Assembly: GCA_044892525.1 (NCBI GenBank)
Contig: CM097885.1
Span: 11,844,001-11,908,000 of the forward strand
Origin: Schmidtea polychroa
Lineage: Eukaryota
Direction: 5' to 3'
Length of the DNA stretch: 64,000 bases
The translations under genes and the position numbers were made by a program. Positions 16,811 through 49,731 of the stretch are shown one piece after another; positions within the stretch are counted from its first letter, which is position 1; each line of letters opens with the position of its first letter. The notes under the pieces were generated by a model that searched no databases, had not been told where the DNA came from, and saw nothing but the letters and a program-made list of their open reading frames with translations.

Positions 16811-17139
16811 TAAAAAAAATTTGTACTTTTAGACTTAGCATATTTTTGAAAAATATGATGACGGGGGGGGGGTACTGTGCTAGCGGTGCCCTGTGCCAGC
16901 AGTGCCCAATCCATCTACTGACATTAACTTGCAGGTCACTCTATTTTCCAAGATTTAAGTTATTTTTTCAATATTGCAGGCTAAAACTCGTGTTTACTAC
17001 ATGTCGTTTTTGCCATAAGAAATAAACTCACAAAACCACCATCAAATACCACAGTCAATATGTAAAGAACATTCATCGGCATTGCGTCCAAGTTGCAAAA
17101 CTAAGTGTTGAAGTTATCAAGATCAAGAATAATATATAT

Positions 17140-20100
17140 TAGGGTGGGTCGAAAATTTTTTTTTTCTCCAAACATGCCTAAAAAGTTGTGCTTATGCTAG
17201 AAAATGAAATATCCCTGCAAAAGACTGCTGTTTAAAAGGGTTTACAGGTCCCAACTTTTGTTTGTATGTATTAGTACTATCCCAGTAAAAATGCTCGCAC
17301 ATGTGCCATTGTAAATTCATCCTGCAAGCAGTCACACGCTTGCAGAAAGACCATTTTTGACATGCTCTATTCACAAGTCCAAGCTAACGCGTGCATGTAT
17401 AGAGAGGTTAATTCACGGAAGCACCTTCACACAAGCACTCACAAAGACAATTTCTTCTGAACAATACTAACACACACACTACAGTCAACACATAATCCAC
17501 ATGGATACTACTAGTCAGTCTAAACTCAGATAATTTAATTTGTTTCGATTGGATGTCAAGTGTTTGCTGGACATAATTAAAAAAGTTAACTTGATGATTC
17601 ACTTTTATTTTGCCAGAGCTGAGTACAGAAGAGCAGTTATGAAGGGACAGAGAAATAAGCAATTTCGCAAAACAAGAAGTAAATCACGTCATTGTCTGTT
17701 TGGTCAAACTTGTGAACTACCCAGAAACCAATTACCTACTTGTGAAGATGTGTTTCGTGATTACTGTTACAATGAGAAATGTACGCAATTTCATACTGGC
17801 TTTAACGAACAAGCAACTCTTCTCGCAAATAAGGTGAAGGAAATTTATATGAAGGCAAGTATCCCAACTGTTGAGTTCAGTAGTATTGTGGTTCGTGTCA
17901 AGCGACTAATATCAAAAGTGCGTGAATTAGAGAAGTATCCAGTATGCAAGAGGTCATCTGCCAAATTTCAAGATAAGTTAAGCTCGTTTTCCAAATTGTT
18001 TGACATATGTTGCTGCAAATGTTTTAATGATGGTGCTCGTGGAAGAAGTCAGTGTACATGCCGATTGGCCTTGAAAATTCCTACCTTAGAGTGGGAGTTC
18101 TGGATTGACCAACAAACTACCAGAAACATGAAAATCGGAAATACGGACAGACAGGAAACCTCAAAATTGAAGAGAAAACAAACGAAAAGCAGCCCTACAG
18201 GAAAAGGAAAACAAATGAAAAATGAAATAATGGACACTGAAGTTAACGATCTACATCCGACCTCAAGAAGTGACACGGAGAGTGAAGCCGCTAGTGATGA
18301 AAGTAAAGATAAGTTAGACAATTCAACAGAAAGCTCAGAGTCAAGCGTAGAAGAATGTGATGAATTTCAAAATAGAAGACATTATCCTGAATTAAGTAAA
18401 GCTGTTGACAGATGTGGTGTGAGCAACAGAGACACGTGTTTGCTAGTAAACGCTTTTCTGAAAGATATGGAACTGTTATCCTCTCAAACAATCATCGATC
18501 CCGCAAAATTACGGCGTCAGAGAAAGTACTGGAGGGAGAGAGAAATTGAACAGCATTCAGCAGAAGCGAAAAACTTGATTTGCCTCGATTTCGACGGGAA
18601 ACAAGATTCCACCTTACTTCATAGAAGGATCCTAAAAGAGGAGCATTATGTGATTGTCGCCTTTCCAGGGGATACATATATCGATCATGTTGTACCTCAA
18701 AGTAGTAAAGCTGTGGATATTGGCAAAGAAATCATGTCAATCATCGTTAGCACGCAGTCCTCACTGACCCTTCAAGCAATTGTGTGCGATGGAACCAATA
18801 CAAACACCGGAAAAAATAATGGAATAATCAGAAGACTCGAAAAAAGCCTAGGGCGACCTCTACAATGGCTGATATGCTTGTTGCATGCAAATGAATTGCC
18901 ATTCAGGAAGTATTTTTCAGTCGTCGATGGTGGAGAAACAAAAGGTCCAAAAACGTCATGTGGTGAAATAGGAAGCGTTCTTGATTTTGATCCAAAAGAC
19001 AAGCCCGTAGTAGCCTTTATGTCCCTTCCTGGAAAGGTCGTAGATATTAGTGAAAATGTCAAGAAAGAATTGAACACTGATCAATTGTATTTCCTCAGAG
19101 TATGCTTGGCAGTCCAGAAAGGGTACCACAACAACAAGGATGTCCCTTTTCTACAAATGGCACAACCAGGAAATTTGAATCACAGTCGCTGGCTAACGAA
19201 AGCTAATAGAATTCTGCGACTATATATGTCCGAAACTGCTCCATCTGAACCTCTCATGCGAATAGTGAAATTTATTGTCAATTTCTATGGACCGTCATGG
19301 TTTTATATAAAGATTCACTCGTCATGCCAAGATGGTGCAAGAAATATTTTTTATATGCTCCAACTTCTGCAGGATTTGGATCCATCAGACCAAGAAATCA
19401 TCTTTCCTGTCATTCAGAACAACAATTACTTCTCACATCCAGAAAATATACTCCTAGCTGCTGTTGGTGATGATGATGAAGAAATCAGAAAGTTTGCAAC
19501 AGAAAAAATCATAACTGCAAGACAAAATTTTCTCCCTTCCGAAGTGATTCGCACTATGGACAAGAATACTGTCTTTCTTCAGTCGTCTGCTACATCATAT
19601 GCTGACATGATTGACTGGACAAAATGTAATTTGACGCCTCCCCCTCTTTTATCTCATATATTGGATCATGAATTGAAGATGAATAAGAAAATTACATTAG
19701 AACAATTTCCCTGTCATTCTCAAGCCGTTGAAAGAGCCATCAAAGATGTTTCTTCTGCCAGTTGCAAAGTGTTTGGTCACAAGTCCAGACATGGTATGGT
19801 ACTACTGTGTAAAAAATCAAGGAAGGAATTGCCCAAGGTGCAAAGCAAAGCTGATTTCATGTGACTTCTTTTTATGCCCTCGCTAATACATTTCTAAACT
19901 TTTGGCTGGATGTTTTTAATAAAAAATAATTTCGAAAGTTGATTTTTGTCTTTGAAAAGGATAATTCAAATTTGGCCCTTCCTAATCACTGACGTTGTCA
20001 GGATATATTTCAATGCGGGATGAGGACACAGAATATACTATCTCAGCCCAAGAGAGTAAATAATATACTTATAAGCTCTTAAGAAAGCTACATCTAAATA

Positions 20101-24100: not shown

Positions 24101-26044
24101 TGTCATAATTAACTGTAATGTATTCTTCATTTTTTAATGAATTATAAAAAGAAACTGAGAAATATAAAATTAAAATTAAACTTTTATTTTCTAATTTTAA
24201 TTGTTATTTATTTCACACAAATTTTCTGCATAACTTTTTTCAGGTGTTTGTCAATTCATCTTAATTTATTTGTTTAAATCATTGGGGCTATATGAAAAAC
24301 GCTTAAAATTAATTAAAATTTCAATAATAAAATTTAAAAAATAGAAATTAAAAACAAAGTTAATCATTACAAAATATTCTGGATCCTACAAAGTATAAAT
24401 TAAAAATACAAAAAAATTAATTAATTAATTAAATAATTAAAAAATAATTTACGTCATTAATCATTATGATGGTTGCAACAAAATTGTTATTTCGCCATGC
24501 AAAAAAACAATCAGTTAAATTAATACAATTTTTATTTTTTATTTTAGAATCTTTTCAGTAGCTTTTAGAAAAAATGAGAAGTTAATGTTTAAATAGCATT
24601 TAAGTAAAAGTTAAAAAATCAAAATATGTAAAAATCGCATTTGTTGTCGAAAAAAGAGAGATTCAGGTGTAGTTAGGAGAGCCGTAACAAGGGTGGTGCG
24701 AGCGGTGGAGTCGCACAGGGCGCACATCTGAAAGAGGTGCAAAATTGGGATGTAACATTTTTTTAATGTTATCAAAATTTAACAAAATATAAATAAAATA
24801 ATTATCAAATGGCATTCACGAAACAAAATGGCAAATTAGGTAGCCTGTCTTTAACATTACTGTTGGACTGGTCTATTAGGTGTGTATTTTGTAAAATATT
24901 AGTTCACAAAATGGGTTCTTGAGTAGGTAGTTAGGAGCCTACGGGAACAATAGGGGGGGGGGTAAAAAATGTTGCAAACTTTTGATTGCATAACTTTTTC
25001 CGTAGACATTTTTTGATTACATAATTGTTGCCGTAATGCCCAATGTTTTCTGGGATTTTAAATACAAAATTTTTTTTTCAATAAACAAGCCAAGGATAAA
25101 TATTATTTGGGTGGGTCTCCTTGGTCCTGAGAATTTCAATAGAAAAAGGTAGTCTTCAATAAAAAAGCATGGATTTTTCACACAATAGTGAGGGGATCTT
25201 CTTGGTCATGAGAATTTCAATAGAAAAGATGGTTTACATTAAAAACACATAGTAAATTTTTAAAATAAAGCAAATTATTGGTCTAAAATTTAAAAATAAA
25301 GTAAATGATGGGTCTAAAAAATTTAAGTAAATCAGGGTTCAGATTTTTTTTGAAATAAAGTAAATTATGGTCTAAATAAGTAAATTATGGGCTAAGATTT
25401 TTCAATTAAAGTAAATTATGGTCAAAATTTTAAAATTAAAGTAAATTAAGGTTCTAAAAATTAAATTACAGTAATTAATGGTCCAAATTTTTAAATTAAA
25501 GTAAATTTAGGTTCTAAAATATTAAATTAAAGTAAATAATTGTTCAAAATTTAAAATTAAAGTTAATTAAGGGCTCAACTAAGTAAATTATGGTTCAAAT
25601 TTTTAAATTAAGTAAATAATGGTTCTAAAAATTAAAGTAAATTAAGGTCCTAAAAAATTAAATTACAGTAAATAATGGGCACAAATAACTAAATTAAGGT
25701 TCTAAAAAATTAAATTAAAGTTAATTAAGGTCCAAATTTTAAAATTAAGTAATCAATGGTAAAAAAAAATTTTAAATTAAAGTTAAATAAGTAAATTAAA
25801 GTAATAATTTTTAAATAAGTAAATTAAAGTAAGATTTTAAAATTTATTAACAAAAAGTTGAAATAATAGAAGGTGTTTGAGAATTGAAATTTTTTAATGA
25901 AAATTTTAATGAAATATTTTTCAATGATAATTTTTAATGAAAATTTTAATGAAATAATTTTTTAAGTAATTTTAGATGGAAATTTTTATGGAATATTTTT
26001 CAATGTTAATTTTTAATGGAAATTTTAATAGAATAATTTTTTTT

Positions 26045-26123
<79 letters not shown>

Positions 26124-26315
26124 TATTAGTAATAATATATCAACCAAATACTATACAACACATAAAAAATTAACTAAACACATAAAAATAACTAGACACA
26201 TAACAAAACATATAAACATTAACTAAACACATAAAAATGAACTAGACACATAACAAACATAAAAATTTACCAAACAAATAACAAATGTATAGATATAAAC
26301 TTTTATTTAATAAAA

Positions 26316-29300
26316 TTAGTCCTCATCGGACAAAATAACGTCATCGATATCGATGTCATCTTCTCCAAAATCTTCATTTAATTCTTCCTCATCTTCTCCA
26401 AAATCTTCATTAAATTCTTCCTCATCTTCTCCAAAATCTTCATTTAATTCTTCCTCATCTTCTCCAACAATTTCTGCAACATTTTCTCTAATATTAAATT
26501 CACTTAATCTTACATGCCCATATGCAAGACTAGTATTTTCCCCCACCCAAACCCTTTTGTCGTCTTTGTTTGTTAGTGCTATTTTTGTGTTTTTAATTGT
26601 AAAAATTTGATGATTTTTGCTTGTTATTTTAGTCTGAGGAACCGAAAAAATCTGGTTAGTGTTATAACAATCCAGGTATGACTGATGTTTTATGTCACTA
26701 CCTTTCAATGTTACACCTTTAGCCTTTTTTGTTTCCTCATCACCCAACAAGCTATAACATTTAGGTCTAAGAAAAACCCATTCCTTATATTTAAGACCTT
26801 TATTCTCGTCTTTGAACTTTCCAATGACTGAATCAAGGTTCTTACTATATAAGGAATGACAACTATTGTAATTGGAAGTATCTAATAAATTATCTCGAAT
26901 CATTGCAGGTAAAAGAACCTCGAGTTTACAGTTAATGACTTCGAGGAAAAAAGAATCTGTATCACCTGCAACGATATTAATTTTACAATTAAACTCATTG
27001 CGAAATGATTCCAGATCCTTATATTGCAATTCATACATTCTAAGTTTAGATAGATCAAGTACAGATTGACCAATGTAACTTGGTCTATCTAAACATATAG
27101 AATCTGAATTCAATAATGCCGCGATTAAATTATCGTCTATTTTAATAGATTTTTTAAAAGTTGGCTTCGAAGAATATTTAACTAATTTATCGGCTGTTGT
27201 ACAAAGACGAAGATTCATTCTTCTCTTTAAATTTTCAACTGTTTTGCCGTATAAACTGTTATTTAGCAATTTATAATAATTTTTATCTAAGTTATTTATG
27301 CTTTTTGACCTTAATTCTGTATTTGTATCTATATATTTTTTAAAAATTGGAGATTGCTTAAATCTTACACCCCTATTTACACGTGTTACTTTAACACCAA
27401 GTTCCAAATATAATTTTAATAATCTCCAATGAATAACATAATTAGATTTTGGAAGATGAGTTAATAATAATTTTTCAACCTTAGACCCAGCAGGTTTCAT
27501 TTTTTCAGCAGCTACAGGGAAATCATCCAACTTATCATGAAGCTCAGAAGGAATTACAAGATCAACTTCAAGAGTGTATCCATAAGACAAAGATTCAAGA
27601 TTTAAATTCCTACATTCATCTATTATTAAATCAAATCCATCAAGAACCCAACTAAATTCGCCACAAGGTAATGATTGACTTAAAGCCCAACCATAAAGAT
27701 TATTAATATCTATATAAAGTAACTCGGTGTTCTCGTCGGTTTTTACGTAATGCTTATTGACAAAAGTAAGACCGCCTCTTATTCCACCCTCATAAAAGCT
27801 AAACATTTCGTTTTCAGTTATGAGCTCAATTGGTTCATTTAGAGACATTAATGCAGAAGACCAAGACATACCTGGAATTCCGAAATAATTCAATGGTTCC
27901 AATCTATTGTGAGCAATGGATTTCAACCGAAACTGATGAAAGAAATCAGCCAAAAGAAAACAATCAAGTTTTAGGTAGATCATCATATAATCTAATAAAG
28001 TTACGCAATTAGTTTCTACCCAAATCTCCTGAGCTTTTTCATACTCAAGCTCAGTGACACCTTCCCAGATTGGTGGTAATTCATAAGTAGTTTGGAGAAT
28101 ATCTAAAGAAGTGGCGAAATTATAAGGGAAGATTCCTTTTTCAGAAACTATAGTACCAGAAAAAGCAGAATTAGTAAAAGGCAAAGAATTCAAAGTTTTG
28201 ACTGCTTTAGCTAAAGAATCATTGACAAATTGATAAGAATCAATGAATCTTAAGCTAATTTTGCCTAAATGAGCAATCAAAGAAATAAATTTTTCACTCG
28301 TTATTGGGATGCAACCTAAAGTCCAATTTTTAAATTTATTTAATCCATATTTAAGTATATGATGCATATCGTATCCCTTCAAGTTATGAAATACGATAGG
28401 CAAAATTTTATTTATTTTCCTATTTATGTTACATGTGCTACAAGCTGCACCCAAGTATTTGCCCGTAAAATGATCGTGATCTCTAACAGGATCGACGATA
28501 GATTTCAAACAAAGATAACAAACGGAAGCACTAAGAAATTGATGTTGTTCAATTTTCGTTAATTTTATCATTGGTTTCCTACCCATTTTATAATAAAAAG
28601 GAAGAACCTTATTTAATGCTATATCCTCTATAGCACTTAAAAAACTCTCGACGCAATCTAAACCTATGAATTGTTGATATGATTTAGATCCGTCAAAGTT
28701 ATTTACTAGTAAAAGACCAGCAGATATTGGCATGTGTCGTTGGAAATGAAGATTATCAGAAGGTAAAATAGCCTCAAAATCGGCATAAACTACAAAAGGA
28801 GGAGTTACTGTTTTCGACCAGTCAGTAAACTGTAAGAATTTATTTTGAGGGAAAGTGTAAAGAGTTGTTCCTAATTGATTACGTTTACATAATATTTCAT
28901 GTTTTTCCAGTGCGTGTTTATACCTAAACCCATTCAAACACCGATGGCACCATAATGATTGTATGCGTGTAGGACAACTAGTTTTTATGTGGCAATTCAG
29001 TAACCTATTTAAATTACTTATAGCGACGTAATGGAAATTGTTTCCTTTATTTAATAATAGTAAATTAATTACAGTTCCATTTAAAACTTTGGAACGATGT
29101 ATAATGTCTAAATGTGGATGTTTTAAAACGTAATTATCTGTTAATTGTTTGCTATTGTCATAAGAAAAAACATTAATTATTAAGCCGGGATTTTTGGCCT
29201 CAAATTTTCTAATGTCTTTTAATTTCATGGGTAAATCTAATGGATTATATATTAAGTCTGATAAATTATAACTGGACGTCCTATTTCTATATTGTCTAAC

Positions 29301-30729
29301 AACCTCATCATATTTTAAAATAGCTAAAATGCTATATAAAAAACATGAATCATCGGTGTTTTTTATATTAATTAAACAATATTTATTTTTTAGACAAGTA
29401 GGTAGTTCAATGAAACTCCTACCACTTAATCTACTTAACCTACTTATTTTTGTTATGGTGAAGTGGATTTCAGTTATTTTTTTTATGATCCAACTACTTC
29501 CTAACTCTGTGATATTACTTATTTTCTCGTTTAGTTCCCTAATGCCTTCGTCAAAAAATGATGCAGTTAAAGGTTTTGCGTAATTCGAAATATTATTAAC
29601 CTTTATTTCCCCGTCTTTTTCAAATTCGATTGTTATTCCGAATTGAATTTTGACGGAGCCTAATTCGTTAATAATATCTCGTAATTTTATAATTAATCGT
29701 TCTGGAAATATTATTTCCTTTATATTCAAGTCGCTAGTATTTAAACTTAAAATTTGATGTGTACCCCTTAAATCTTTCTGTATTATGGGAACATTACCCC
29801 CTATTTGTATTATATTTAATCCATCCCAAGAATCAAAGGAATTGAATAATCCGACCTGGGATTCAACAACTAATCCGACCTGGGATTCAACAAAAGGCAA
29901 TCCGACCTGGGATTCAACAAAAGACAATCCGTCCTGAAATTCAACAACCAATCCATCATTGGATTCAACAACTAATCCGACCTGGGATTCAAAAGAAGAA
30001 GTATCTAATTTAATTTTTTTATTTGTATTATTTTTTTCTATAGTCGAAGGTCTTTTAAAAACACTATCTTTTTTAAAATTAAACCTATCTAAATGTTGTT
30101 TATGTTTATTATAAAAAACACTATATGTTACAGGGTCACTAGTCTTACATACGGGACATATAAAATATGTTTTATTATAATATTTTTTCGTGTAATAATT
30201 CTCCATTATAGAATGGCAATTATTATCATGTTCTTTCGATGAACAATAATTTGGATAAAGTATACCTATAAAATAAAAATTTAATAAAAAAAATATATAT
30301 ATAATTTAAATGAAATATTTTAATAAATGTTTACGCAAAAATTTACAAATTTTATTTACTAAAAAAAAATAAAAATTTACTAAATTAAAAATATTAACAT
30401 TTAATTAAATAAAAAATTATATTAAATTTCCTTTAAATTATATAAAAAAGTAATCAATACTTACATTGTAAATTTTCATTTCGATTTATTGACACATTGA
30501 CATAATTTTTCTCTTTATTCGTATTACCTAAATTATTAATTAATTAAATCAATAAATTAAAAATTATGTTTACTTTTTCTTTTCAAATTTCCTTTAATCT
30601 TCGATTTTAAATTGTCTTCATTAATATTATCTAAATTAATTAATAAATTAATTAATAAATAAATTAAAATTTACCAAATTCCTGAATTTTTTCTCGAACA
30701 TTCATAACGTTTTCTATTAAAGAATTCAT
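26316..30729 (-). CDS. polB: pPolB, left-arm copy; exons 30729-30675, 30630-30574, 30527-30465, 30265-26316
   Basis: 1296-aa ORF with Exo motifs (YADFE, HNLKGYD, YLKLD) and Pol motifs (YIDINNLYG, KLLNNSLYGK, GDTDS, KAKGV), an OTU-like NTDDSCF..HY segment, and upstream phase-1 micro-exons. Confidence 0.93.
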
Positions 30730-33004
30730 TTTTAAAGGTTAATTATTTGTTAAATGTGAATAATGATTGATTATTGTTTATAGATTATTATTGTTTATAG
30801 ATTATTATTGTTTATAGGAACAAATTCTAACCAATCAAAATCAAGGAAGGGTAGGGAAAAAATATATTACGTTGGGGTATTTTAAAATTGAAATTTATTT
30901 TAAAAACACATTTTGACGTTAAAGTCGAGTTATGTAACAAAGACATAATAAACTTATTATTTACTACAAATATTTCACCTATTTAATACCTAACTAGAGA
31001 TGATATATATTGATTGTTCATAAAAGCAAACTTAATCATATATTTCTGTATATTATTTTGTATATTATTTCTGTAAATTATCAAGTAAATTTAAAGTTCT
31101 TGATAAGGTTAAAATCATCATTAAAGCTTTAAATTTTTTAATAAATCAACATGAAATTCTTAGAAAATAATTGAAAAAAAAATATTATTACAAAGTCATA
31201 TCCTATCACGTGATTATTAACCTAACTGTCATTAAAAATAATTTTTATTTAAAATTAAAAAACCAATCAATAAAAATGCATCCAATTATCAAGAAATTAA
31301 TTAATAAAAATGCATCCAATTATCAAGAAATTAATTAATAAAAATGCATCCAATTATCAAGAAATTAATTAAATTTATCTTAGAACTAACTTAAAATTTT
31401 TAAATATTCATTCTATTCACATGAAATTCATGAAAATGATAAAAATTCACAAAAACCATCAACTCTAAAAAAAAAAATTACTAATGAATACCTTAAACAC
31501 AAAAATTTATCCAAATAATCTTTCAAATTAATTCATTAAAATTGAAGACAACACGCTCTATTTCGTCATTACATTCAATTAAAATTAAATAAAACAAGAT
31601 AAGAACTTTGATAAAAAATATTATTCTAAAATGGTAAGAATTAACACTGTAGTGTTAAATGAAAAGGTAATTATTCTTTAAATCTAATTATAATTATAAT
31701 CATATTTTTCTTTAATTTAACTCTTTATTTACTTAATTTAGTCATTGTTTACCGAATATAGAAGTTTAAAATATAGACCATTGATTACTTTAATTTAAAA
31801 ATGTATCCCTTAATTTACATAATTTCCATCTAAAATTATTTCAAAAAATTTTTTTTTTAAATTTGTCATTGAAAAATATTTCATAAAAGTTTTCATTAAA
31901 AATTATCTTAAAAATTATTCCATAAAAATTTCCATCTAAAATTACTTAAAAAAATTATTTCATAAAAATTTTCATTAAAAAATTTCAATTCTCAAACACC
32001 TTCTATTATTTTGTTAATAAATTTAAAATCTTACTTTAATTTGCTTATTACATTACTTATTTAAAAATTATTACTTTAATTTACTTATTTAAAATATTTG
32101 ACCATTGATTACTTAATTTAAAAATTTGGACCTTAATTTACTTTAATTTAATTTTTTAGAACCTTAATTTACTTTAATTTTAAATTTTGAACCTTAATTA
32201 ACTTTAATTCAAATTTGGACCTTAATTTACTTTAATTGAAAATTTTAGACCTTAATTTACTTAATTGAAATTTTAGATCTTAATTTACTTATTTATCTTT
32301 AATTTACTTGAGTTTAAAAATATATACCATAATTTACTTAATTGAAAATTTTAGACTTTATTTTAGAACTTAATTGAAAATTTCAGACATTAATTTACTT
32401 AATTGAAAATTTTAGACCATAATTTCATGTAAAATTTTAGACCATAATTTACTTATTTGAATATTTTAGACCTTAAATTGCTTAATTTAAAATTTTAGAC
32501 CTTAATTTGCTTATTTATCTTTAATTTACTTAAGTTTAAAAATATATACTATAATTTACTTTAATTTAAAATTTTATACCATAATTTACTTAATTGTAAA
32601 TTTTAGACCATAATTTCATGTAAAATTTTAGACCATAATTTACTTAATTGGAAATTTTAGACCTTAATTTGCTTATTTATCTTTAATTTACTTAAGTTTA
32701 AAAATATATACCATAATTTACTTAATTGAAAATTTTAGACTTTATTTTAGAACTTAATTGAAAATTTTAGACCTTAATTTGCCTAATTGAAAATTTTAGA
32801 CCTTAATTTACTTAATTGAAAATTTTAGACCTTAATTTGCTTAATTGAAAATTTTAGACCTTAATTTACTTAATTGAAAATTTTAGACCTTAATTTACTT
32901 AATTGAAAATTTTAGACCTTAATTTACTTAATTGAAAATTTTAGACCATAATTTTAATGTAAAATTGTTATTGAAAAAATTTTCATTTCTCAGGCGCCGT
33001 TTAT

Positions 33005-33311
33005 AGTAGGTAGTTAGTGGCCCGCTGCAAATGCAAGCCTTTTTTTATGCGGCACGATTTTTTTTTTACGGCAACTTTTGATTGCGCAATTGTTGCAACT
33101 TGTTTTTTTTTTTGTATTGAAAATTCTAGAAAAAAAAATAATACAGTTGCGTAATAATCCAAAAAAAAAATACAACAAAAAAAACTAGTTGCAACAATTG
33201 CGTAATAAAAAGTTGCAACAAAAAAAAGTTGCAACAAAAAAAAAGTTGCAACAACCCCCCCCCCCCCCCCGGGGGGGGGTAATTGTTGCAGCGGGCCACT
33301 ATCTACCTACT
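33005..33311. other. Central junction module bounded by terminus-like inverted repeats
   Basis: AGTAGGTAGTTAGTGGCCCGCTGCAA...TTGCAGCGGGCCACTATCTACCTACT, with an asymmetric interior containing GTTGCAAC repeats and a poly-C/poly-G run. Confidence 0.8.
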
Positions 33312-35449
33312 ATAAACGGCGCCTGAGAAATGAAAATTTTTTCAATGACAATTTTACATTAAAATTATGGTCTAAAATTTTCAATTAAGTAAATTAAGGT
33401 CTAAAATTTTCAATTAAGTAAATTAAGGTCTAAAATTTTCAATTAAGTAAATTAAGGTCTAAAATTTTCAATTAAGCAAATTAAGGTCTAAAATTTTCAA
33501 TTAAGTAAATTAAGGTCTAAAATTTTCAATTAGGCAAATTAAGGTCTAAAATTTTCAATTAAGTTCTAAAATAAAGTCTAAAATTTTCAATTAAGTAAAT
33601 TATGGTATATATTTTTAAACTTAAGTAAATTAAAGATAAATAAGCAAATTAAGGTCTAAAATTTCCAATTAAGTAAATTATGGTCTAAAATTTTACATGA
33701 AATTATGGTCTAAAATTTACAATTAAGTAAATTATGGTATAAAATTTTAAATTAAAGTAAATTATAGTATATATTTTTAAACTTAAGTAAATTAAAGATA
33801 AATAAGCAAATTAAGGTCTAAAATTTTAAATTAAGCAATTTAAGGTCTAAAATATTCAAATAAGTAAATTATGGTCTAAAATTTTACATGAAATTATGGT
33901 CTAAAATTTTCAATTAAGTAAATTAATGTCTGAAATTTTCAATTAAGTTCTAAAATAAAGTCTAAAATTTTCAATTAAGTAAATTATGGTATATATTTTT
34001 AAACTCAAGTAAATTAAAGATAAATAAGTAAATTAAGGTCTAAAATTTCAATTAAGTAAATTAAGGTCTAAAATTTTCAATTAAAGTAAATTAAGGTCCA
34101 AATTTGAATTAAAGTAAATTAAGGTTCTAAAAAATTAAATTAAAGTAAATTAAGGTCCAAATTTTTAAATTAAGTAATCAATGGTCAAATATTTTAAATA
34201 AGTAAATTAAAGTAATAATTTTTAAATAAGTAATGTAATAAGCAAATTAAAGTAAGATTTTAAATTTATTAACAAAATAATAGAAGGTGTTTGAGAATTG
34301 AAATTTTTTAATGAAAATTTTTATGAAATAATTTTTTTAAGTAATTTTAGATGGAAATTTTTATGGAATAATTTTTAAGATAATTTTTAATGAAAACTTT
34401 TATGAAATATTTTTCAATGACAAATTTAAAAAAAAAATTTTTTGAAATAATTTTAGATGGAAATTATGTAAATTAAGGGATACATTTTTAAATTAAAGTA
34501 ATCAATGGTCTATATTTTAAACTTCTATATTCGGTAAACAATGACTAAATTAAGTAAATAAAGAGTTAAATTAAAGAAAAATATGATTATAATTATAATT
34601 AGATTTAAAGAATAATTACCTTTTCATTTAACACTACAGTGTTAATTCTTACCATTTTAGAATAATATTTTTTATCAAAGTTCTTATCTTGTTTTATTTA
34701 ATTTTAATTGAATGTAATGACGAAATAGAGCGTGTTGTCTTCAATTTTAATGAATTAATTTGAAAGATTATTTGGATAAATTTTTGTGTTTAAGGTATTC
34801 ATTAGTAATTTTTTTTTTTAGAGTTGATGGTTTTTGTGAATTTTTATCATTTTCATGAATTTCATGTGAATAGAATGAATATTTAAAAATTTTAAGTTAG
34901 TTCTAAGATAAATTTAATTAATTTCTTGATAATTGGATGCATTTTTATTAATTAATTTCTTGATAATTGGATGCATTTTTATTAATTAATTTCTTGATAA
35001 TTGGATGCATTTTTATTGATTGGTTTTTTAATTTTAAATAAAAATTATTTTTAATGACAGTTAGGTTAATAATCACGTGATAGGATATGACTTTGTAATA
35101 ATATTTTTTTTTCAATTATTTTCTAAGAATTTCATGTTGATTTATTAAAAAATTTAAAGCTTTAATGATGATTTTAACCTTATCAAGAACTTTAAATTTA
35201 CTTGATAATTTACAGAAATAATATACAAAATAATATACAGAAATATATGATTAAGTTTGCTTTTATGAACAATCAATATATATCATCTCTAGTTAGGTAT
35301 TAAATAGGTGAAATATTTGTAGTAAATAATAAGTTTATTATGTCTTTGTTACATAACTCGACTTTAACGTCAAAATGTGTTTTTAAAATAAATTTCAATT
35401 TTAAAATACCCCAACGTAATATATTTTTTCCCTACCCTTCCTTGATTTT

Positions 35450-35520
35450 GATTGGTTAGAATTTGTTCCTATAAACAATAATAATCTATAAACAATAATA
35501 ATCTATAAACAATAATCAAT
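35450..35520 (+). promoter_or_regulatory. Putative Pol II promoter of the right-arm pPolB (inverted CCAAT plus triplicated TATAAACAAT)
   Basis: GATTGG at ~35450 and three TATAAA units 45-90 nt before the predicted ATG at 35557. The element-1 pPolB shows the same layout. Confidence 0.5.
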
Positions 35521-35556
35521 CATTATTCACATTTAACAAATAATTAACCTTTAAAA

Positions 35557-38500
35557 ATGAATTCTTTAATAGAAAACGTTATGAATGTTCGAGAAAAAAT
35601 TCAGGAATTTGGTAAATTTTAATTTATTTATTAATTAATTTATTAATTAATTTAGATAATATTAATGAAGACAATTTAAAATCGAAGATTAAAGGAAATT
35701 TGAAAAGAAAAAGTAAACATAATTTTTAATTTATTGATTTAATTAATTAATAATTTAGGTAATACGAATAAAGAGAAAAATTATGTCAATGTGTCAATAA
35801 ATCGAAATGAAAATTTACAATGTAAGTATTGATTACTTTTTTATATAATTTAAAGGAAATTTAATATAATTTTTTATTTAATTAAATGTTAATATTTTTA
35901 ATTTAGTAAATTTTTATTTTTTTTTAGTAAATAAAATTTGTAAATTTTTGCGTAAACATTTATTAAAATATTTCATTTAAATTATATATATATTTTTTTT
36001 ATTAAATTTTTATTTTATAGGTATACTTTATCCAAATTATTGTTCATCGAAAGAACATGATAATAATTGCCATTCTATAATGGAGAATTATTACACGAAA
36101 AAATATTATAATAAAACATATTTTATATGTCCCGTATGTAAGACTAGTGACCCTGTAACATATAGTGTTTTTTATAATAAACATAAACAACATTTAGATA
36201 GGTTTAATTTTAAAAAAGATAGTGTTTTTAAAAGACCTTCGACTATAGAAAAAAATAATACAAATAAAAAAATTAAATTAGATACTTCTTCTTTTGAATC
36301 CCAGGTCGGATTAGTTGTTGAATCCCAGGACGGATTAGTTGTTGAATCCAATGATGGATTGGTTGTTGAATTTCAGGACGGATTGTCTTTTGTTGAATCC
36401 CAGGTCGGATTGCCTTTTGTTGAATCCCAGGTCGGATTAGTTGTTGAATCCCAGGTCGGATTATTCAATTCCTTTGATTCTTGGGATGGATTAAATATAA
36501 TACAAATAGGGGGTAATGTTCCCATAATACAGAAAGATTTAAGGGGTACACATCAAATTTTAAGTTTAAATACTAGCGACTTGAATATAAAGGAAATAAT
36601 ATTTCCAGAACGATTAATTATAAAATTACGAGATATTATTAACGAATTAGGCTCCGTCAAAATTCAATTCGGAATAACAATCGAATTTGAAAAAGACGGG
36701 GAAATAAAGGTTAATAATATTTCGAATTACGCAAAACCTTTAACTGCATCATTTTTTGACGAAGGCATTAGGGAACTAAACGAGAAAATAAGTAATATCA
36801 CAGAGTTAGGAAGTAGTTGGATCATAAAAAAAATAACTGAAATCCACTTCACCATAACAAAAATAAGTAGGTTAAGTAGATTAAGTGGTAGGAGTTTCAT
36901 TGAACTACCTACTTGTCTAAAAAATAAATATTGTTTAATTAATATAAAAAACACCGATGATTCATGTTTTTTATATAGCATTTTAGCTATTTTAAAATAT
37001 GATGAGGTTGTTAGACAATATAGAAATAGGACGTCCAGTTATAATTTATCAGACTTAATATATAATCCATTAGATTTACCCATGAAATTAAAAGACATTA
37101 GAAAATTTGAGGCCAAAAATCCCGGCTTAATAATTAATGTTTTTTCTTATGACAATAGCAAACAATTAACAGATAATTACGTTTTAAAACATCCACATTT
37201 AGACATTATACATCGTTCCAAAGTTTTAAATGGAACTGTAATTAATTTACTATTATTAAATAAAGGAAACAATTTCCATTACGTCGCTATAAGTAATTTA
37301 AATAGGTTACTGAATTGCCACATAAAAACTAGTTGTCCTACACGCATACAATCATTATGGTGCCATCGGTGTTTGAATGGGTTTAGGTATAAACACGCAC
37401 TGGAAAAACATGAAATATTATGTAAACGTAATCAATTAGGAACAACTCTTTACACTTTCCCTCAAAATAAATTCTTACAGTTTACTGACTGGTCGAAAAC
37501 AGTAACTCCTCCTTTTGTAGTTTATGCCGATTTTGAGGCTATTTTACCTTCTGATAATCTTCATTTCCAACGACACATGCCAATATCTGCTGGTCTTTTA
37601 CTAGTAAATAACTTTGACGGATCTAAATCATATCAACAATTCATAGGTTTAGATTGCGTCGAGAGTTTTTTAAGTGCTATAGAGGATATAGCATTAAATA
37701 AGGTTCTTCCTTTTTATTATAAAATGGGTAGGAAACCAATGATAAAATTAACGAAAATTGAACAACATCAATTTCTTAGTGCTTCCGTTTGTTATCTTTG
37801 TTTGAAATCTATCGTCGATCCTGTTAGAGATCACGATCATTTTACGGGCAAATACTTGGGTGCAGCTTGTAGCACATGTAACATAAATAGGAAAATAAAT
37901 AAAATTTTGCCTATCGTATTTCATAACTTGAAGGGATACGATATGCATCATATACTTAAATATGGATTAAATAAATTTAAAAATTGGACTTTAGGTTGCA
38001 TCCCAATAACGAGTGAAAAATTTATTTCTTTGATTGCTCATTTAGGCAAAATTAGCTTAAGATTCATTGATTCTTATCAATTTGTCAATGATTCTTTAGC
38101 TAAAGCAGTCAAAACTTTGAATTCTTTGCCTTTTACTAATTCTGCTTTTTCTGGTACTATAGTTTCTGAAAAAGGAATCTTCCCTTATAATTTCGCCACT
38201 TCTTTAGATATTCTCCAAACTACTTATGAATTACCACCAATCTGGGAAGGTGTCACTGAGCTTGAGTATGAAAAAGCTCAGGAGATTTGGGTAGAAACTA
38301 ATTGCGTAACTTTATTAGATTATATGATGATCTACCTAAAACTTGATTGTTTTCTTTTGGCTGATTTCTTTCATCAGTTTCGGTTGAAATCCATTGCTCA
38401 CAATAGATTGGAACCATTGAATTATTTCGGAATTCCAGGTATGTCTTGGTCTTCTGCATTAATGTCTCTAAATGAACCAATTGAGCTCATAACTGAAAAC

Positions 38501-39994
38501 GAAATGTTTAGCTTTTATGAGGGTGGAATAAGAGGCGGTCTTACTTTTGTCAATAAGCATTACGTAAAAACCGACGAGAACACCGAGTTACTTTATATAG
38601 ATATTAATAATCTTTATGGTTGGGCTTTAAGTCAATCATTACCTTGTGGCGAATTTAGTTGGGTTCTTGATGGATTTGATTTAATAATAGATGAATGTAG
38701 GAATTTAAATCTTGAATCTTTGTCTTATGGATACACTCTTGAAGTTGATCTTGTAATTCCTTCTGAGCTTCATGATAAGTTGGATGATTTCCCTGTAGCT
38801 GCTGAAAAAATGAAACCTGCTGGGTCTAAGGTTGAAAAATTATTATTAACTCATCTTCCAAAATCTAATTATGTTATTCATTGGAGATTATTAAAATTAT
38901 ATTTGGAACTTGGTGTTAAAGTAACACGTGTAAATAGGGGTGTAAGATTTAAGCAATCTCCAATTTTTAAAAAATATATAGATACAAATACAGAATTAAG
39001 GTCAAAAAGCATAAATAACTTAGATAAAAATTATTATAAATTGCTAAATAACAGTTTATACGGCAAAACAGTTGAAAATTTAAAGAGAAGAATGAATCTT
39101 CGTCTTTGTACAACAGCCGATAAATTAGTTAAATATTCTTCGAAGCCAACTTTTAAAAAATCTATTAAAATAGACGATAATTTAATCGCGGCATTATTGA
39201 ATTCAGATTCTATATGTTTAGATAGACCAAGTTACATTGGTCAATCTGTACTTGATCTATCTAAACTTAGAATGTATGAATTGCAATATAAGGATCTGGA
39301 ATCATTTCGCAATGAGTTTAATTGTAAAATTAATATCGTTGCAGGTGATACAGATTCTTTTTTCCTCGAAGTCATTAACTGTAAACTCGAGGTTCTTTTA
39401 CCTGCAATGATTCGAGATAATTTATTAGATACTTCCAATTACAATAGTTGTCATTCCTTATATAGTAAGAACCTTGATTCAGTCATTGGAAAGTTCAAAG
39501 ACGAGAATAAAGGTCTTAAATATAAGGAATGGGTTTTTCTTAGACCTAAATGTTATAGCTTGTTGGGTGATGAGGAAACAAAAAAGGCTAAAGGTGTAAC
39601 ATTGAAAGGTAGTGACATAAAACATCAGTCATACCTGGATTGTTATAACACTAACCAGATTTTTTCGGTTCCTCAGACTAAAATAACAAGCAAAAATCAT
39701 CAAATTTTTACAATTAAAAACACAAAAATAGCACTAACAAACAAAGACGACAAAAGGGTTTGGGTGGGGGAAAATACTAGTCTTGCATATGGGCATGTAA
39801 GATTAAGTGAATTTAATATTAGAGAAAATGTTGCAGAAATTGTTGGAGAAGATGAGGAAGAATTAAATGAAGATTTTGGAGAAGATGAGGAAGAATTTAA
39901 TGAAGATTTTGGAGAAGATGAGGAAGAATTAAATGAAGATTTTGGAGAAGATGACATCGATATCGATGACGTTATTTTGTCCGATGAGGACTAA
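35557..39994 (+). CDS. polB: pPolB, right-arm copy; exons 35557-35611, 35656-35712, 35759-35821, 36021-39994
   Basis: 1304-aa ORF matching the left copy except for one extra 8-aa repeat unit; three phase-1 GT-AG introns. Confidence 0.93.
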
Positions 39995-40186
39995 TTTTAT
40001 TAAATAAAAGTTTATATCTATACATTTGTTATTTGTTTGGTAAATTTTTATGTTTGTTATGTGTCTAGTTCATTTTTATGTGTTTAGTTAATGTTTATAT
40101 GTTTTGTTATGTGTCTAGTTATTTTTATGTGTTTAGTTAATTTTTTATGTGTTGTATAGTATTTGGTTGATATATTATTACTAATA

Positions 40187-40247
<61 letters not shown>

Positions 40248-41405
40248 AAAAAAAAATTATTCTATTAAAATTTCCATTAAAAATTAACATTGAAAAATAT
40301 TCCATAAAAATTTCCATCTAAAATTACTTAAAAAATTATTTCATTAAAATTTTCATTAAAAAATTTCAATTCTCAAACACCTTCTATTATTTCAACTTTT
40401 TGTTAATAAATTTTAAAATCTTACTTTAATTTACTTATTTAAAAATTATTACTTTAATTTACTTATTTAACTTTAATTTAAAATTTTTTTTTACCATTGA
40501 TTACTTAATTTTAAAATTTGGACCTTAATTAACTTTAATTTAATTTTTTAGAACCTTAATTTAGTTATTTGTGCCCATTATTTACTGTAATTTAATTTTT
40601 TAGGACCTTAATTTACTTAGTTGAGCCCTTAATTAACTTTAATTTTAAATTTTGAACAATTATTTACTTTAATTTAATATTTTAGAACCTAAATTTACTT
40701 TAATTTAAAAATTTGGACCATTAATTACTGTAATTTAATTTTTAGAACCTTAATTTACTTTAATTTTAAAATTTTGACCATAATTTACTTTAATTGAAAA
40801 ATCTTAGCCCATAATTTACTTTATTTCAAAAAAAATCTGAACCCTGATTTACTTAAATTTTTTAGACCCATCATTTACTTTATTTTTAAATTTTAGACCA
40901 ATAATTTGCTTTATTTTAAAAATTTACTATGTGTTTTTAATGTAAACCATCTTTTCTATTGAAATTCTCATGACCAAGAAGATCCCCTCACTATTGTGTG
41001 AAAAATCCATGCTTTTTTATTGAAGACTACCTTTTTCTATTGAAATTCTCAGGACCAAGGAGACCCACCCAAATAATATTTATCCTTGGCTTGTTTATTG
41101 AAAAAAAAATTTTGTATTTAAAATCCCAGAAAACATTGGGCATTACGGCAACAATTATGTAATCAAAAAATGTCTACGGAAAAAGTTATGCAATCAAAAG
41201 TTTGCAACATTTTTTACCCCCCCCCCCCCCCCCCTATTGTTCCCGTAGGCTCCTAACTACCTACTTTCTTGTCATTTTTTCAATTAGCAACAAAATTTTA
41301 AGAGTATTACTACCTATTATAATAGCTGGCAATGAATACATAGTTAACAATCTCAACATGAACATTATAGTATATTTTTTTCCAATTTCACCACTGATTT
41401 TCTTT

Positions 41406-41873: not shown

Positions 41874-42795
41874 AGTAGTATGATTGGTCACCGCCCGGCC
41901 ATGAGCCCGCCCGGCCACATATACCCCCTCCCCCCGGATGAAAAAAAAATTCTAGAACGATGCCACATATTTTTAGAACTATTACGTAATCGATGCCACA
42001 TATTTTTAGAACGATGCCTCATATTTTTAGAACTATTACATAATCGACGCCTAATATTTTTAGAACGATGCCTCATATTTTTAGAACTATTACGTAATCG
42101 ACGCCTCATATTATTATTCAAAATATTATTAGTGATCAATCGGGGACATGGTTTTCGTTTGCCCAAAAGTTATCGTTCCCATTATCCGAATTTATTGGAC
42201 GATACCTCATCTTAAAGCCCTTTGCAAGACCTTTAAAATGAGTTATAGATTCCTATCATCCTATGACTCGTCATATTTTTAGAACGATGCCTCTTATTTT
42301 TAGAATGATTACGTCATATTTTTAGAACGATGTCTCTTATTTTTAGAACGATTACGTCATTATTTTAGAACGATGCATCATATTTTTAGAATGATTACGT
42401 CATTATTTTAGAACGATGCCTCATATTTTTCGAATGATTACGTCATTATTTTAGAACGACGCCTCTTATTTTTAGAATGATTACGTCATATTTTTAGAAC
42501 GATGACTCATCCTATGACTCATCATATTTTTAGAACTATTACATAATCGATGCCTCATTATTTTTAGAACGATGACTCATACGATGATTCATCAATGTCA
42601 CTATAATTTTAGTAATAAAGACATCTATTTTTAGCAACATTTTAAATCTATTTTTAGTAACATTTTCGAACCAATGTTTTAATTATCGATTATGTAATAA
42701 TTTGATTTTGTTTAAATCATTGATTATATTATAATTTTTTTGTTTTAATTATCGATTACGTAATAATTTAACTTATCATTATCGCACGCGCGAGA

Positions 42796-42846
<51 letters not shown>

Positions 42847-43066
42847 TTTCTCCGAGTTTATCCGACACGATATTCTGTCCCCCTAAGGGTAATGGTCACA
42901 AAGGTACTGCTAAAACTTTAACATATTATTACACACAATGTATAAAAAATATTATTAGTGTCCACACATGCTACAAGTTAGTATTCCCATCGATAGCTCA
43001 TCTTAAAGTTTAGTGTAAGATCTATCTAATGATATATTATTATTATAATTGGTAAAGATGTTATTA

Positions 43067-43143
<77 letters not shown>

Positions 43144-43235
43144 TAAAACAATAAAATGATAATTTAAGCCTTTTGCTGCAAATAATGTATTTAATGAAAG
43201 AATTTTCGACTATACGATAGTCCTTGTCAATCTCC

Positions 43236-43324
<89 letters not shown>

Positions 43325-43727
43325 GGTAAAGATATTAACACTTGCGCGAAAGATGTTATTATTATTATTATGATTATTATGATTATTATTATATCTAGTC
43401 CGAGTTTATCTGACAAGATATTCTGTCCCCACACACATTCTATATACACATACCTTATTATTTCAAAGTAACACGCGCGGGAGTTATTATTATTATCAAA
43501 AATCTAAAATATGGTTTACACACACACACAACCCATTAACAATTATTATTATGAATATTAGTGAAAATCTAAAATATAGTTTACACACACACACACAACC
43601 CATTAACAATTATTATTATGAATATTAGTGAAAACCTAAAATATTTTCTACACACATACACAACCCATTATTATTATCAATATTAAAAACCTAAAATATT
43701 TTCTACACACATACACAACCCATTAAC

Positions 43728-43793
<66 letters not shown>

Positions 43794-46700
43794 GATTATG
43801 ATTATTATGATTATTATTATATATAGTCAGAGTCTATCCGACAAGATATTCTGTCCCCCTATGGGTATTGCTCATATGGGTAATGGTCACAAGGGTACTA
43901 CTCACACTCAACATGTCGCAAAGGTTTTCGATCTTAAAGCATATTATGGTTTATTAAGGTTAGTAAATAAAACTTATCACACACACTTTAATATTTAAAC
44001 GATAAAAAATCAAGACAAGAGAGGACAAGGCAAAGTGTATGCATTTAGTATTGCCAGGCCTAATGAGCAGTGACCAAATATTTGAAAGACACGGTGGATA
44101 TTTGTTCGCGTCCACAAGGGTCGTCTGTGCCTCCCCCAAGTGGGGTCAGAAGAACCTGGGCATTATAGCTTTCCGTACGGAACATTACGCCTAGCATGAG
44201 TAGTCAACTACCAGCACATTCGAAACGTATAATTTCAAAATGCATGCGTCATTGGCACTATAGCCAAATTAATTAATGTTTTCACTAACACAAATATATA
44301 TTTACAGAGGCCTCCCACTAGTTGGATTACAACCGCCCACCACGACGATCAGCTTGTAAATATATATTAATTAAGGGATAAAGAGGACCCACCCAACCCT
44401 ATTATATTTAATTTACAAAAGGTTTCTCGCTCTTCTGCTGGTAATCTATCTCAAAATTATCATCTCCATCGGGCCATTTGAAATACATCTTGCAAATTGG
44501 ACGTATTTCTTAGTTTCTGATGCGGTGTCAACTATCATTGCTAAAATTTATATTGATTTAAAAGCAATTAACTTACAGATGTTATCTAGCATTTTATCGT
44601 CAAAAATTAAATTCTGTCTGACTATTAGGCAACTGTTATTTGTGGTATACTTTTTCAATGACATTTCCCACCATAAAACACAGATACCTAAATATAATAA
44701 ATATATATTTTAAAGAATTAATTCATGTCTTACATTAATAATAATATTCTTCAGGTATGACGAGTACTTTACTTAATTGCTAAAACATCGGTTTTCCCAT
44801 TTTTTTGACATTCGTTGAAACTTTACATAATTTAAGTCTGATAATTCATGTTGAAGGACACCCACAATCAGCTAATTCATTTAAAACATCCAGAACATAA
44901 GTCATTTAGTGTTTCACCATTTTGTCTGGTTCATCTTCTTCATAATCATATAATTCATTTTCTTCATTACTAAGTAAAATAATTAAAATATTGTAGTAAA
45001 TTCTTTATTTAATTACTTTATGGATACTAAATCGAAAGAAATAAAGTTATATGAAAAGTTTATTTAAATAATTTAAATTTAGTTATTTAAAAATATTTAA
45101 ACAATTTAGTTATTTAAGCATATTTAAACATTATTATATACATTATTATATAAACATTATTATCTTACCACCTGAGAATAATATTGTTAATTTATCTCGG
45201 TGTTATTAAAATTATCTTTCGACTTTACGCTTCTTACCATTTTAGAATAAGATTTTTTATCAAAATTTGTGTTAATTTGACTGATTCAATTTGATGGAGT
45301 TATTGTTAATTCGTTTTATTATATATACTCTGGGTTTATCCGACAAGATATTTTCTCCCTCTATGGGTACTGTTCACAATTGGTACTGCTCGTAAGGGTA
45401 CTGGTCGTAAAGGTACTGGTGTGTTTTATTTAGGCAAATTTTTGGTTATTATTTAGCATTAAATTCATTGGTAATTTTTAGAGTTAGCGGGATTTTACTA
45501 ACATTATTACTAACCTTTTTGTGAATAATTGAAAGAATATTTTAAAATTTAACGTTTTAGTGTTAATTCTAAGACAAATTTAATTAATTTCTTGATAATT
45601 TGCTATATTTTATTGACTTGTTTTTAAATTTACTTTTAAATAAAAATATTTTTAATGGCAGTTAGGTTAATAATTAGAGTTTTTACAATAATCAAGTTAT
45701 TATTATTTAATTTTTGTAAAAATTATTGTAAAATATACTGAAATTTGTGATTTTGAAAGATATATCACGTTATAATTGCTATATAATTAGCTGAATCGAT
45801 AAAGAATTATGATCAATCGATATATTTCATCTCTAGTTAGGTATTTGATGGTAAATGTGGTGAAATATTTGTAGAAAATATTGATTTTAGTAAATTTTGA
45901 TTTTTTAATGGGCTCTTACTACATGAATTTAAATACTAAATTATTTCAATGGAAGGATGTCTGTAACAATTAAATAAAATTCATATTTTGAAGAATTTTC
46001 TATGGATTTTAAGAGAATTGATATATTAAAGGTCTGATATATTAAAGTCGGTTGGTTAAGATGGTAATAGATGATTTTTAAGGTGTTTAAAATGATAGAA
46101 ATATTTGGTGAGGGATCGGTTAAGGTGGAAATGTTTGAAATCTCTATTTAAATCGACAATGTTCTTATTGGTAAATTTTAAAGGGAAATAGTCAGTATTT
46201 AGCTATGAATTAATAATAGTTCCTGTGAAATTATATCGTTTTAGAGGTTTATTAGGTTGTGATGAATGTTATTGCACAGTAATTTAGATTTATGTTTTAG
46301 AACCAGTTTTTTATTAATTATCCACTGTTTTATTAAGTCGTTTAGGGTTAATGATCAATTTACTTGGTTTTCACAATGAAATATTTGAAATCTTTAGAAT
46401 TAATTGGGATTGATATCAAAGGTTATTGCTTTAAATTATTTTACTTAAGAAGTTATTTTATTCATTGTGGGGACATCAGTGACAAAACTTGAGAAATATT
46501 GACTTAAAAGTTGGAAATCGACAACAGCTAAAGAAAATTGATCTTTATTGAAGGAATTTTATGATTTTAATTAGAAATTAAATCGGTTGAATATCAGTTA
46601 ATCTATTGAAGGAATATTGTTATCGGATGGATAAATGATATTTTGCCAAATTACCTTTGCTAAATATTATTTTAAATCACTAAAAATGAGAAAAATAAGC

Positions 46701-49240: not shown

Positions 49241-49303
<63 letters not shown>

Positions 49304-49640
49304 GTTAATGGGTTGTGTATGTGTGTAGAAAATATTTTAGGTTTTTAATATTGATAATAATAATGGGTTGTGTATGTGTGTAGAAATTATTTTAGGTTTT
49401 CACTAATATTCATAATAATAATTGTTAATGGGTTGTGTGTGTGTGTGTGTAAACCATATTTTAGATTTTTGATAATAATAATAACTCCCGCGCGTGTTAC
49501 TTTGAAATAATAAGGTATGTGTATATAGAATGTGTGTGGGGACAGAATATCTTGTCAGATAAACTCTGACTATATATAATAATAATCATAATAATCATAA
49601 TAATAATAACATCTTTCGCGCAGGTGTTAATATCTTTACC

Positions 49641-49731
<91 letters not shown>

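Follow-up and report, generated by a model that had tools for sequence, protein, structure and literature searches.

A palindromic insertion in the genome of Schmidtea polychroa is probably a duplex dimer, formed by snap-back, of a polymerase-only Polinton/Maverick derivative of 8.4 kb. It lies in a window of 64,000 nt, the whole stretch of DNA that was analysed (GCA_044892525.1, CM097885.1, positions 11,844,001-11,908,000, forward strand); positions below follow window numbering. On the best reading of the DNA, the element is a mirror-image double copy of a Polinton derivative reduced to its polymerase gene, and its centre is the derivative's own self-folding end. This reading draws on the anatomy of the palindrome, the TSD around the dimer, the hairpin, and an axis that falls exactly at the central module, all of them at one dimer locus.

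Anatomy of the palindrome and its insertion as one unit

Self-comparison of the window identified 24922-41265 as a single palindrome of 16,344 bp. Its parts, and the TSD copies that border it, are as follows.

24922..41265, no strand: whole palindromic element with AG...CT ends, a one-unit insertion (self-comparison and arm alignment)
24916..24921, plus strand: left TSD copy TTCTTG, 6 bp (flank comparison)
41266..41271, plus strand: right TSD copy TTCTTG (flank comparison)
24922..25252, plus strand: outer (L) terminus region with AGTAGGTAGTTAG, G-run, and TGTTGCAA motifs; no special fold-back (z = -0.87)
25253..26043, plus strand: outer subterminal array, AT-rich; contains a GAAGGTGTTTGAGAATTG block at 25869
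26047..26120, no strand: (TAA)n microsatellite downstream of pPolB, bounds approximate
26316..30206, minus strand: pPolB copy 1, 1296 aa, uninterrupted, with exonuclease, polymerase, Cys/His protease-like, and endonuclease-VII-like motifs
30207..31830, no strand: non-coding stretch upstream of pPolB
31832..32963, minus strand: inner AT-rich array, the right subterminal repeat of the monomer, ~70-74% identical to the outer array
33312..41265, plus strand: mirror arm, with 7,920 identical bases, 2 substitutions, and 7 indels relative to 24922-33004 (arm alignment)
36080..39994, plus strand: pPolB copy 2, 1304 aa, with an 8-aa in-frame repeat indel relative to copy 1

The element ends, AGTAGGTAG...CTACCTACT, are terminal inverted repeats of the AG...CT / AGT...ACT type. 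The exact (AGT)2 motif given in PMC8097293 is present only in the neighbouring element at 41874 and not in the palindrome ends. Immediately outside 24922 and 41265 lies a direct 6-bp TSD, TTCTTG (chance agreement of two 6-mers, ~7e-4 at the local composition). This TSD around the whole palindrome adds to what an earlier note on this DNA had found. Since TTCTTG stands in direct orientation on both sides, we conclude that the palindrome integrated as one molecule.

Alignment of the arms (24922-33004 and 33312-41265) gave 7,922 aligned positions with only two substitutions, at 32278/34038 and 32969/33347, and all seven indels fall in tandem repeats or the G-run. Near the centre, the arms differ solely at 32969/33347. 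At 32278 and 32969, the left arm has T, and both the right arm and the adjacent repeat units have C. Both substitutions lie no more than 730 bp from the centre, and five of the seven indels are additional sequence on the left-arm side.

The earlier note had described two AG..CT segments of ~8.3 kb that share a junction, each arm being bounded by inverted AT-rich arrays. Both descriptions hold: the segments 24922-33311 (8,390 bp) and 33005-41265 (8,261 bp) share 307 bp, and the arrays (25272-26040 and 32616-31832) are 74% identical over 832 columns. The GAAGGTGTTTGAGAATTG block (GAAGGTG) occurs at four placed sites, 25869(+), 31986(-), 34283(+), and 40367(-). Between 30207 and 33004 there is no stop-to-stop frame longer than 55 aa.

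The two inner termini are not equivalent

The 307 bp at the centre comprise the following features.

33005..33311, no strand: central module, an imperfect hairpin with 216/307 bases paired, -94.95 kcal/mol, z = -14.7 (computed ssDNA fold)
33005..33030, plus strand: embedded inverted terminus copy, the 5' arm of a 26-bp stem; mostly joined to the array, rarely to other flanks
33032..33250, no strand: inner imperfect stem, 33032-33118 with 33169-33250, closing a 50-nt loop (33119-33168)
33254..33280, no strand: C-run/G-run side hairpin, on the 33311 side only; counterpart of the outer-end G-run
33286..33311, minus strand: the monomer's true right (R) terminus, which ends in CTACT-3'; in public contigs, joined to many unrelated flanks

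The terminal 13-mer AGTAGGTAGTTAG has exact copies at 24922 (+), 33005 (+), and 41265 (-) and a copy with a single mismatch that ends at 33311 (-). These are four matches in the window for 0.05 expected, a number reached in 0 of 100 shuffles, and the terminus copies that the earlier note had placed at 33005 and 33311 are thereby borne out. The first 13 terminal bases are kept at both inner ends (13/13 and 12/13). The module ends are complementary at 25/26 positions, and the inner stem has diverged. As the note had also claimed, the module flanks are inverted (59/60 positions, with GTTTAT before and ATAAAC after), and comparison of the flanks found no direct duplication around the module at this locus. 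The absence of a direct TSD is not decisive, since a fold-back would erase one copy. The module edge also presents an outward-facing TATAAAC on both sides (33311-33317 and 32999-33005); this 7-mer has 33 occurrences in the window, and its position at the edge may be chance.

The outer end lacks a fold of this kind (z = -0.87, compared with -14.7 for the module). Over the first 30 bases, it agrees with the 33311 end at 23 positions and with the 33005 end at 20. Read inward from 33311, the module aligns with the outer 339 bp at a score of 53.5 (shuffle maximum, 14.5), with the G-run present; read from 33005, it scores 13.5 (shuffle maximum, 9.0), with the G-run absent. The landmark C[AC]TGAGAA, which precedes the arrays, is set back 318 bases from the 33311 end; its distances from L are ~205 and ~286 bases, and the 33005 edge is only 11 bases away. 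We conclude that the inner terminus copies are not equivalent: 33311 is a true end of the element, and the copy at 33005 is for the most part embedded. From the collinearity of 33311 with L and the landmark distances, 24922-33311 can be read as a complete monomer with diverged inverted repeats. This putative 8.4-kb monomer would run from L (24922) to R (33311), ends that have drifted apart (~70-75% identical), and 33005-33118 appears to be an older inverted terminus copy set into the right repeat.

Public contigs use the two ends unequally

Nineteen public runs are listed as containing part of the pPolB region. Four of these, from four studies (X14, X1, X2, and X16), were compared over 32945-33340 at the level of contigs only. 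This interval was covered by 9,595 contigs in X14, 1,758 in X1, 4 in X2, and 1 partial contig in X16. The numbers for X14 and X1, runs that may include the sample used for the assembly, indicate that the end family is abundant. Of the words that make up the pPolB region, X2 contains 61% and X16 56%, although their filtered contigs give only four and one on the module; sparse cover of this kind is no evidence of absence.

Among the contigs listed, loose ends behind 33311 were found in 71 contigs (plus 18 at 33312) of X14, 30 of X1, and 1 + 1 of X2, and loose ends before 33005/33004 were found in 8 of X14 and 3 of X1. Agreement among the loose ends behind 33311 was low, at 0.42-0.47, which corresponds to many different flanks. 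The share of 33005 in the end junctions listed is thus 8/97 in X14 and 3/33 in X1, and a 1:1 ratio is rejected. The resulting ratio of ~10:1 for 33311 over 33005 is approximate, in that placement of a contig on one side of the stem depends on ~5 diagnostic bases, mirror-side placement is possible, and 175 further loose-end rows lie beyond those listed. The array flank is joined to the 33005 end in many variant contigs at high depth, and none of the contigs listed covers the whole module. Summed contig depth, which is not a copy number, favours the G/C-run half of the module over the left half by a factor of 2-3. Numerous joints and loose ends were also seen near 33214-33290 (within 33197-33308), some resembling an outer-type terminus; they suggest that the host genome contains several related variants of the terminus as well as very short derivatives.

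We conclude that, among the contigs listed, 33311 serves many copies as a genuine insertion end and 33005 is usually internal. Free 307-bp copies and monomers of the second orientation (33005-41265, "flop"; 24922-33311 being "flip") are a minority, and free mini-elements look rare; the 8 and 3 junctions at 33005 fit either. The copies that end at 33311 could alternatively be a separate gene-less family that donated its end to the element.

The element encodes a single polymerase

In each arm, pPolB is the sole open reading frame (ORF) of at least 100 aa, with its start codon towards the centre. Besides the exonuclease, polymerase, and Cys/His motifs, it carries RDHDH...CxxCN, and it is intact, with all catalytic motifs. 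The closest relatives (at most 60% identity) carry PF03175 and PF02945. A Pfam search of the element's own pPolB gave no match to PF03175 (DNA_pol_B_2), a family matched by 19/34 aligned pPolBs. Endonuclease_7 was matched by all 34 at E <= 0.1, and by the element's pPolB at E = 0.0012, a match below the curated cut-off.

The predicted structure of residues 140-700 (pLDDT 90) has fold matches among adintovirus, bidnavirus-like, and adenovirus polymerases, with E values down to 4e-24. Solved structures gave weak matches only, among them phi29 and Y-family polymerases. The Foldseek match to Y-family polymerases is weak (E about 0.03, about 120 columns) and fits the little-finger likeness named in PMC11161782, from which the domain names D1 (terminal protein) and D2 (vOTU) are also taken. 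No OTU fold was present among the Foldseek matches listed for the model. The candidate vOTU/protease Cys is invariant in alignments A1 and A2; the His is invariant in A1 and has a nearby position in A2. In sequence searches of solved structures, the zinc/endonuclease-like segment did not match T4 endonuclease VII, and the pPolB profile matched phi29 weakly (E = 0.14).

The element has no second gene, and an HUH/Rep-type gene is absent. No integrase was detected by tblastn with the neighbour's integrase or among ORFs of at least 100 aa. Likewise, tblastn with 11 neighbour proteins, no identified protease among them, found no remnant of a capsid or packaging ATPase gene, and no terminal resolution site is recognisable in the element. 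Since the element has neither integrase nor capsid function, we infer that the integrase must have been borrowed.

Neighbouring elements and related loci

A complete-looking Polinton, likely of the helper type, lies 8 kb to the left of the palindrome (<1-16919). Its pPolB is an open frame on the minus strand (1-3900) and is 59% identical to that of the element; its right end, ...CATCTACT at 16919, has an AGTAG terminus related to those of the palindrome. It also has putative capsid genes, an integrase (rve + chromo), and a packaging ATPase; a short gene at 12145-12582 is TBP-like (Pfam TBP, E = 1e-15). The integrase ORF (9705-10805) is open through an in-frame (ATA)n microsatellite, which gives a run of ~27 isoleucines in the core domain.

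To the right, 41874-50983 is a second Polinton-type element, apparently gene-less, of 9,110 bp, with AGTAGT...ACTACT ends and the TSD ATTGTC. Its arms are ~3.2 kb long and differ by 58 substitutions, and its 2.6-kb centre has no AGTAGGTAG-type terminus. Pieces of 37-97 bp from this centre are also found in the non-coding stretch upstream of the dimer's pPolB, at 30946-31640. Intact 750-aa transposase-like ORFs without a Pfam match, which we guess to be perhaps Sola-like, occupy 17594-19864 and 52048-54306; TATATATTAGGGTGG lies upstream of both, and its reverse complement lies downstream of the first.

Profile scans identified 77 metagenome and 13 viral loci with a related pPolB. None of these 90 loci has the tested terminus motif or a comparable palindrome; most of the loci lie on contigs too short to reveal such an architecture, the close relatives among them on contigs of 1-4.5 kb. 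Scans of viral contigs with the protein alone and with the terminal DNA pattern gave no match. Hairpins at the ends of two contigs (L047 and L032) were rejected: one overlaps the polymerase frame, neither has the terminus, and both resemble assembly fold-backs. Recurrent sizes in clusters of relatives (~5.7 and 11.3-12.6 kb; 6.7-7.3 and 12.6 kb) were dropped as evidence of monomers and dimers, because repeat arrays would split a complete Polinton into similar pieces. One 6.5-kb viral contig (L087, 1-6543) has 272-bp inverted ends, a distant pPolB, and three other ORFs of at least 120 aa, the layout of a compact pPolB replicon.

A probable snap-back origin for the dimer

We computed a joint fold of the two 350-nt ends of the monomer. 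For base 33309, the pairing probability is 0.99 with 33007 and 0.001 with L. The corresponding 26-nt duplex energies are -31.9 kcal/mol for the 3' end with the embedded copy and -13.0 kcal/mol for the 3' end with the L end. In these computed folds, a base-paired 3' end is available at the terminal hairpin, on 33005-33030. Since the 3' end pairs with the embedded copy far better than with L, a displaced strand should snap back. Extension from the paired 3' end would copy the sequence from 33004 leftwards and so give exactly the sequence that follows 33311. Inverted flanks that start exactly at the module edge are what 3' self-priming from the 26-bp stem predicts.

Strand displacement, self-priming, and a helper integrase are the steps that we infer for the cycle. 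Protein-primed strand displacement starting at L would free the top strand. The 3' end of this strand would pair with 33005-33030, rather than form a panhandle with L, and act as a primer. Copying back as far as L would yield a hairpin molecule closed at the module, and new protein priming at its open L end, proceeding round the hairpin, would convert it into a duplex of 16.3 kb that has L at both ends. Insertion of the dimer with a 6-bp TSD would then fall to a retroviral-type integrase that a complete Polinton provides in trans. With a perfect 8-kb panhandle and approximately unit Polinton length, such a dimer could spread as a satellite or defective replicon, and its inner termini would not be needed as origins. 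At 16,344 bp, it is close to the length of intact vertebrate Mavericks in PMC8097293 (16,862 +/- 1,678 bp). The head-to-head dimer and fold-back that the earlier note had considered are supported by the near-identical arms, the flanks inverted at the module edge, and the diverged inverted repeats of the monomer, which end at 33311.

A wider proposal, which we regard as doubtful, is a Polinton lineage with a parvovirus-like hairpin telomere. Protein priming would operate at the open end and self-priming at the hairpin end, duplex dimers of packaging size would be the mobile form, and monomers would occasionally be resolved by the endonuclease-VII-like domain of pPolB or by a helper integrase. 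Polymerase-only dimers might then be the replication helpers of gene-less palindromic satellites.

Alternative explanations

The dimer could instead be an obligatory intermediate of a programmed cycle that uses internal origins. Regular resolution at the module would yield flip and flop monomers, either through a nick, for which the endonuclease-VII-like domain of pPolB is one candidate, or through an integrase that cuts the inner CT ends. The conservation of the terminal 13 bases and of the stem (25/26), while the inner stem diverged, suggests selection. The module, a stem with a side arm, is built like the AAV ITRs described in PMC1131931, and a minority of contigs have other flanks at 33005. 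A symmetric junction with internal origins, which the earlier note had put forward together with a check for flip and flop, is nevertheless unlikely: among the contigs listed, the 33311 end is joined ~10 times as often as 33005, and 8/97 and 3/33 are far from 1:1. Furthermore, the 33005 copy has no G-run, and the element has neither an HUH/Rep-type gene nor a dedicated nickase. Protein priming generally requires a free DNA end, which also counts against internal origins. The Endonuclease_7 match of all 34 aligned pPolBs, the element's own sub-cut-off match included, would supply a candidate nuclease, but a domain common to all aligned relatives is not specific to this element.

Quite unlikely, in our view, is the suggestion that the module is a nested mini-element, i.e., a free 307-bp non-autonomous element with ~125-bp imperfect inverted repeats that inserted near the right end of the pPolB element and was the site of a later fold-back. 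MITEs and foldback non-autonomous transposons have a non-coding inverted-repeat layout and require an integrase in trans. The module shares this layout, is placed 11 bases beyond the CCTGAGAA landmark, at a site where the sequence of the outer repeat is unrelated, and is joined to other flanks at 33005 in some contigs. However, unlike those of a MITE or foldback element, its flanks are inverted rather than direct. Its two ends are also used very unequally in the genome (~1:10 among the contigs listed), whereas a free element should give equal junction counts. The junction of the array with 33005 is itself present in many variant contigs at high depth, and the 64-kb window contains no other copy of the module. 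As a free element, therefore, the nested mini-element of the earlier note does not fit the unequal junctions; as an ancient source of the hairpin, it may be correct and is compatible with the snap-back reading.

Inverted recombination between two monomers at the 26-bp stem, or the copying of one arm by gene conversion or template switching, without 3' self-priming and followed by integration, seems very improbable. Recombination would yield the identical sequence, so that it and self-priming through the same stem cannot be separated by sequence alone. The partners, however, would have to agree at all but 2 of 7,922 positions and cross over within a 26-bp repeat, and intramolecular pairing of the 3' end is strongly favoured.

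An assembly or library artefact from fold-back chimeric reads is barely credible: long palindromes are a known class of artefact, but this one stops exactly at AG...CT termini with different flanks beyond, its direct 6-bp TSD argues strongly against a fold-back, and 2 substitutions and 7 indels separate its arms, one indel being an in-frame 24-nt repeat unit.

Comparison with known systems

The element resembles Polintons/Mavericks in its AGT...ACT ends, 6-bp TSD, and pPolB with an extended N-terminus (PMC8097293, PMC11161782, and PMC4196379). With these adintovirus-like elements of animals it also shares subterminal repeats and an overall length of ~16-17 kb. It differs from them in that it has no integrase, capsid, ATPase, or protease genes, its pPolB is doubled in mirror image, and its centre is a hairpin with two termini. 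Its inverted repeats are ~8 kb, whereas those of vertebrate Mavericks are 46-1,447 bp in PMC8097293; gene-bearing repeats of ~2 kb are described for a butterfly Polinton in 10.1101/2025.02.07.637071. In the standard Polinton model, as outlined in PMC4196379, a single-strand racket (panhandle) forms between both ends and is copied by protein priming, not by 3' self-priming. By its ends, TSD, and polymerase, the element is a Polinton derivative; it is not an autonomous Polinton, since the integrase and capsid genes are absent. A full-text literature search found no palindromic polymerase-only Polinton and no self-priming Polinton end; Repbase reports, supplements, and subscription papers may list such elements.

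Bidnaviruses, as presented in PMC4938981, also have a pPolB, on linear genomes of ~6 kb with inverted ends. In contrast to the element, their ends form a panhandle without terminal hairpins, self-priming is excluded, and capsid proteins are encoded. The rolling-hairpin dimers of AAV and other parvoviruses, and self-complementary AAV, are similar in that a terminal hairpin serves as the 3' primer and copying that goes unresolved produces a duplex dimer whose axis is the hairpin (PMC1131931). The same source describes dimers that are head to head or tail to tail and half-size genomes that reach unit length by dimerising. Unlike these viruses, the element lacks a Rep/HUH nickase, a recognisable terminal resolution site, and 1:1 flip/flop, and it has Polinton-type protein-primed outer ends, its own polymerase, and a 6-bp TSD. 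With no Rep, it is not a parvovirus.

Protein-primed plasmids offer a further parallel. Vierula and Bertrand reportedly described, in 1992, a hairpin or palindromic derivative of the protein-primed linear plasmid kalilo. The pGKL1 hairpin plasmids are likewise protein-primed replicons that give hairpin and palindromic duplex molecules, as proposed here. Those derivatives are mitochondrial or cytoplasmic, whereas the element is nuclear, was presumably inserted by a Polinton integrase, and has an intact polymerase. It also differs from them in folding at a structured, terminus-bearing end that is found in many copies.

Implications

What is particular to this locus is the combination of an intact polymerase with an axis that coincides with a real and structured terminus. 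Most of what is known of Polinton replication comes from the single-strand racket model, and this insertion preserves an apparent replication product. It gives a named DNA structure: a terminus that can fold on an embedded copy of itself and prime its own copying, by which a half-size, polymerase-only derivative would become a palindrome of unit length, open to integration by a helper. If sister copies confirm the reading, the insertion would be direct genomic evidence that single strands are displaced during the Polinton cycle. Confirmation would also offer an origin for large palindromic Polinton satellites and would link protein-primed and rolling-hairpin replication in one element.
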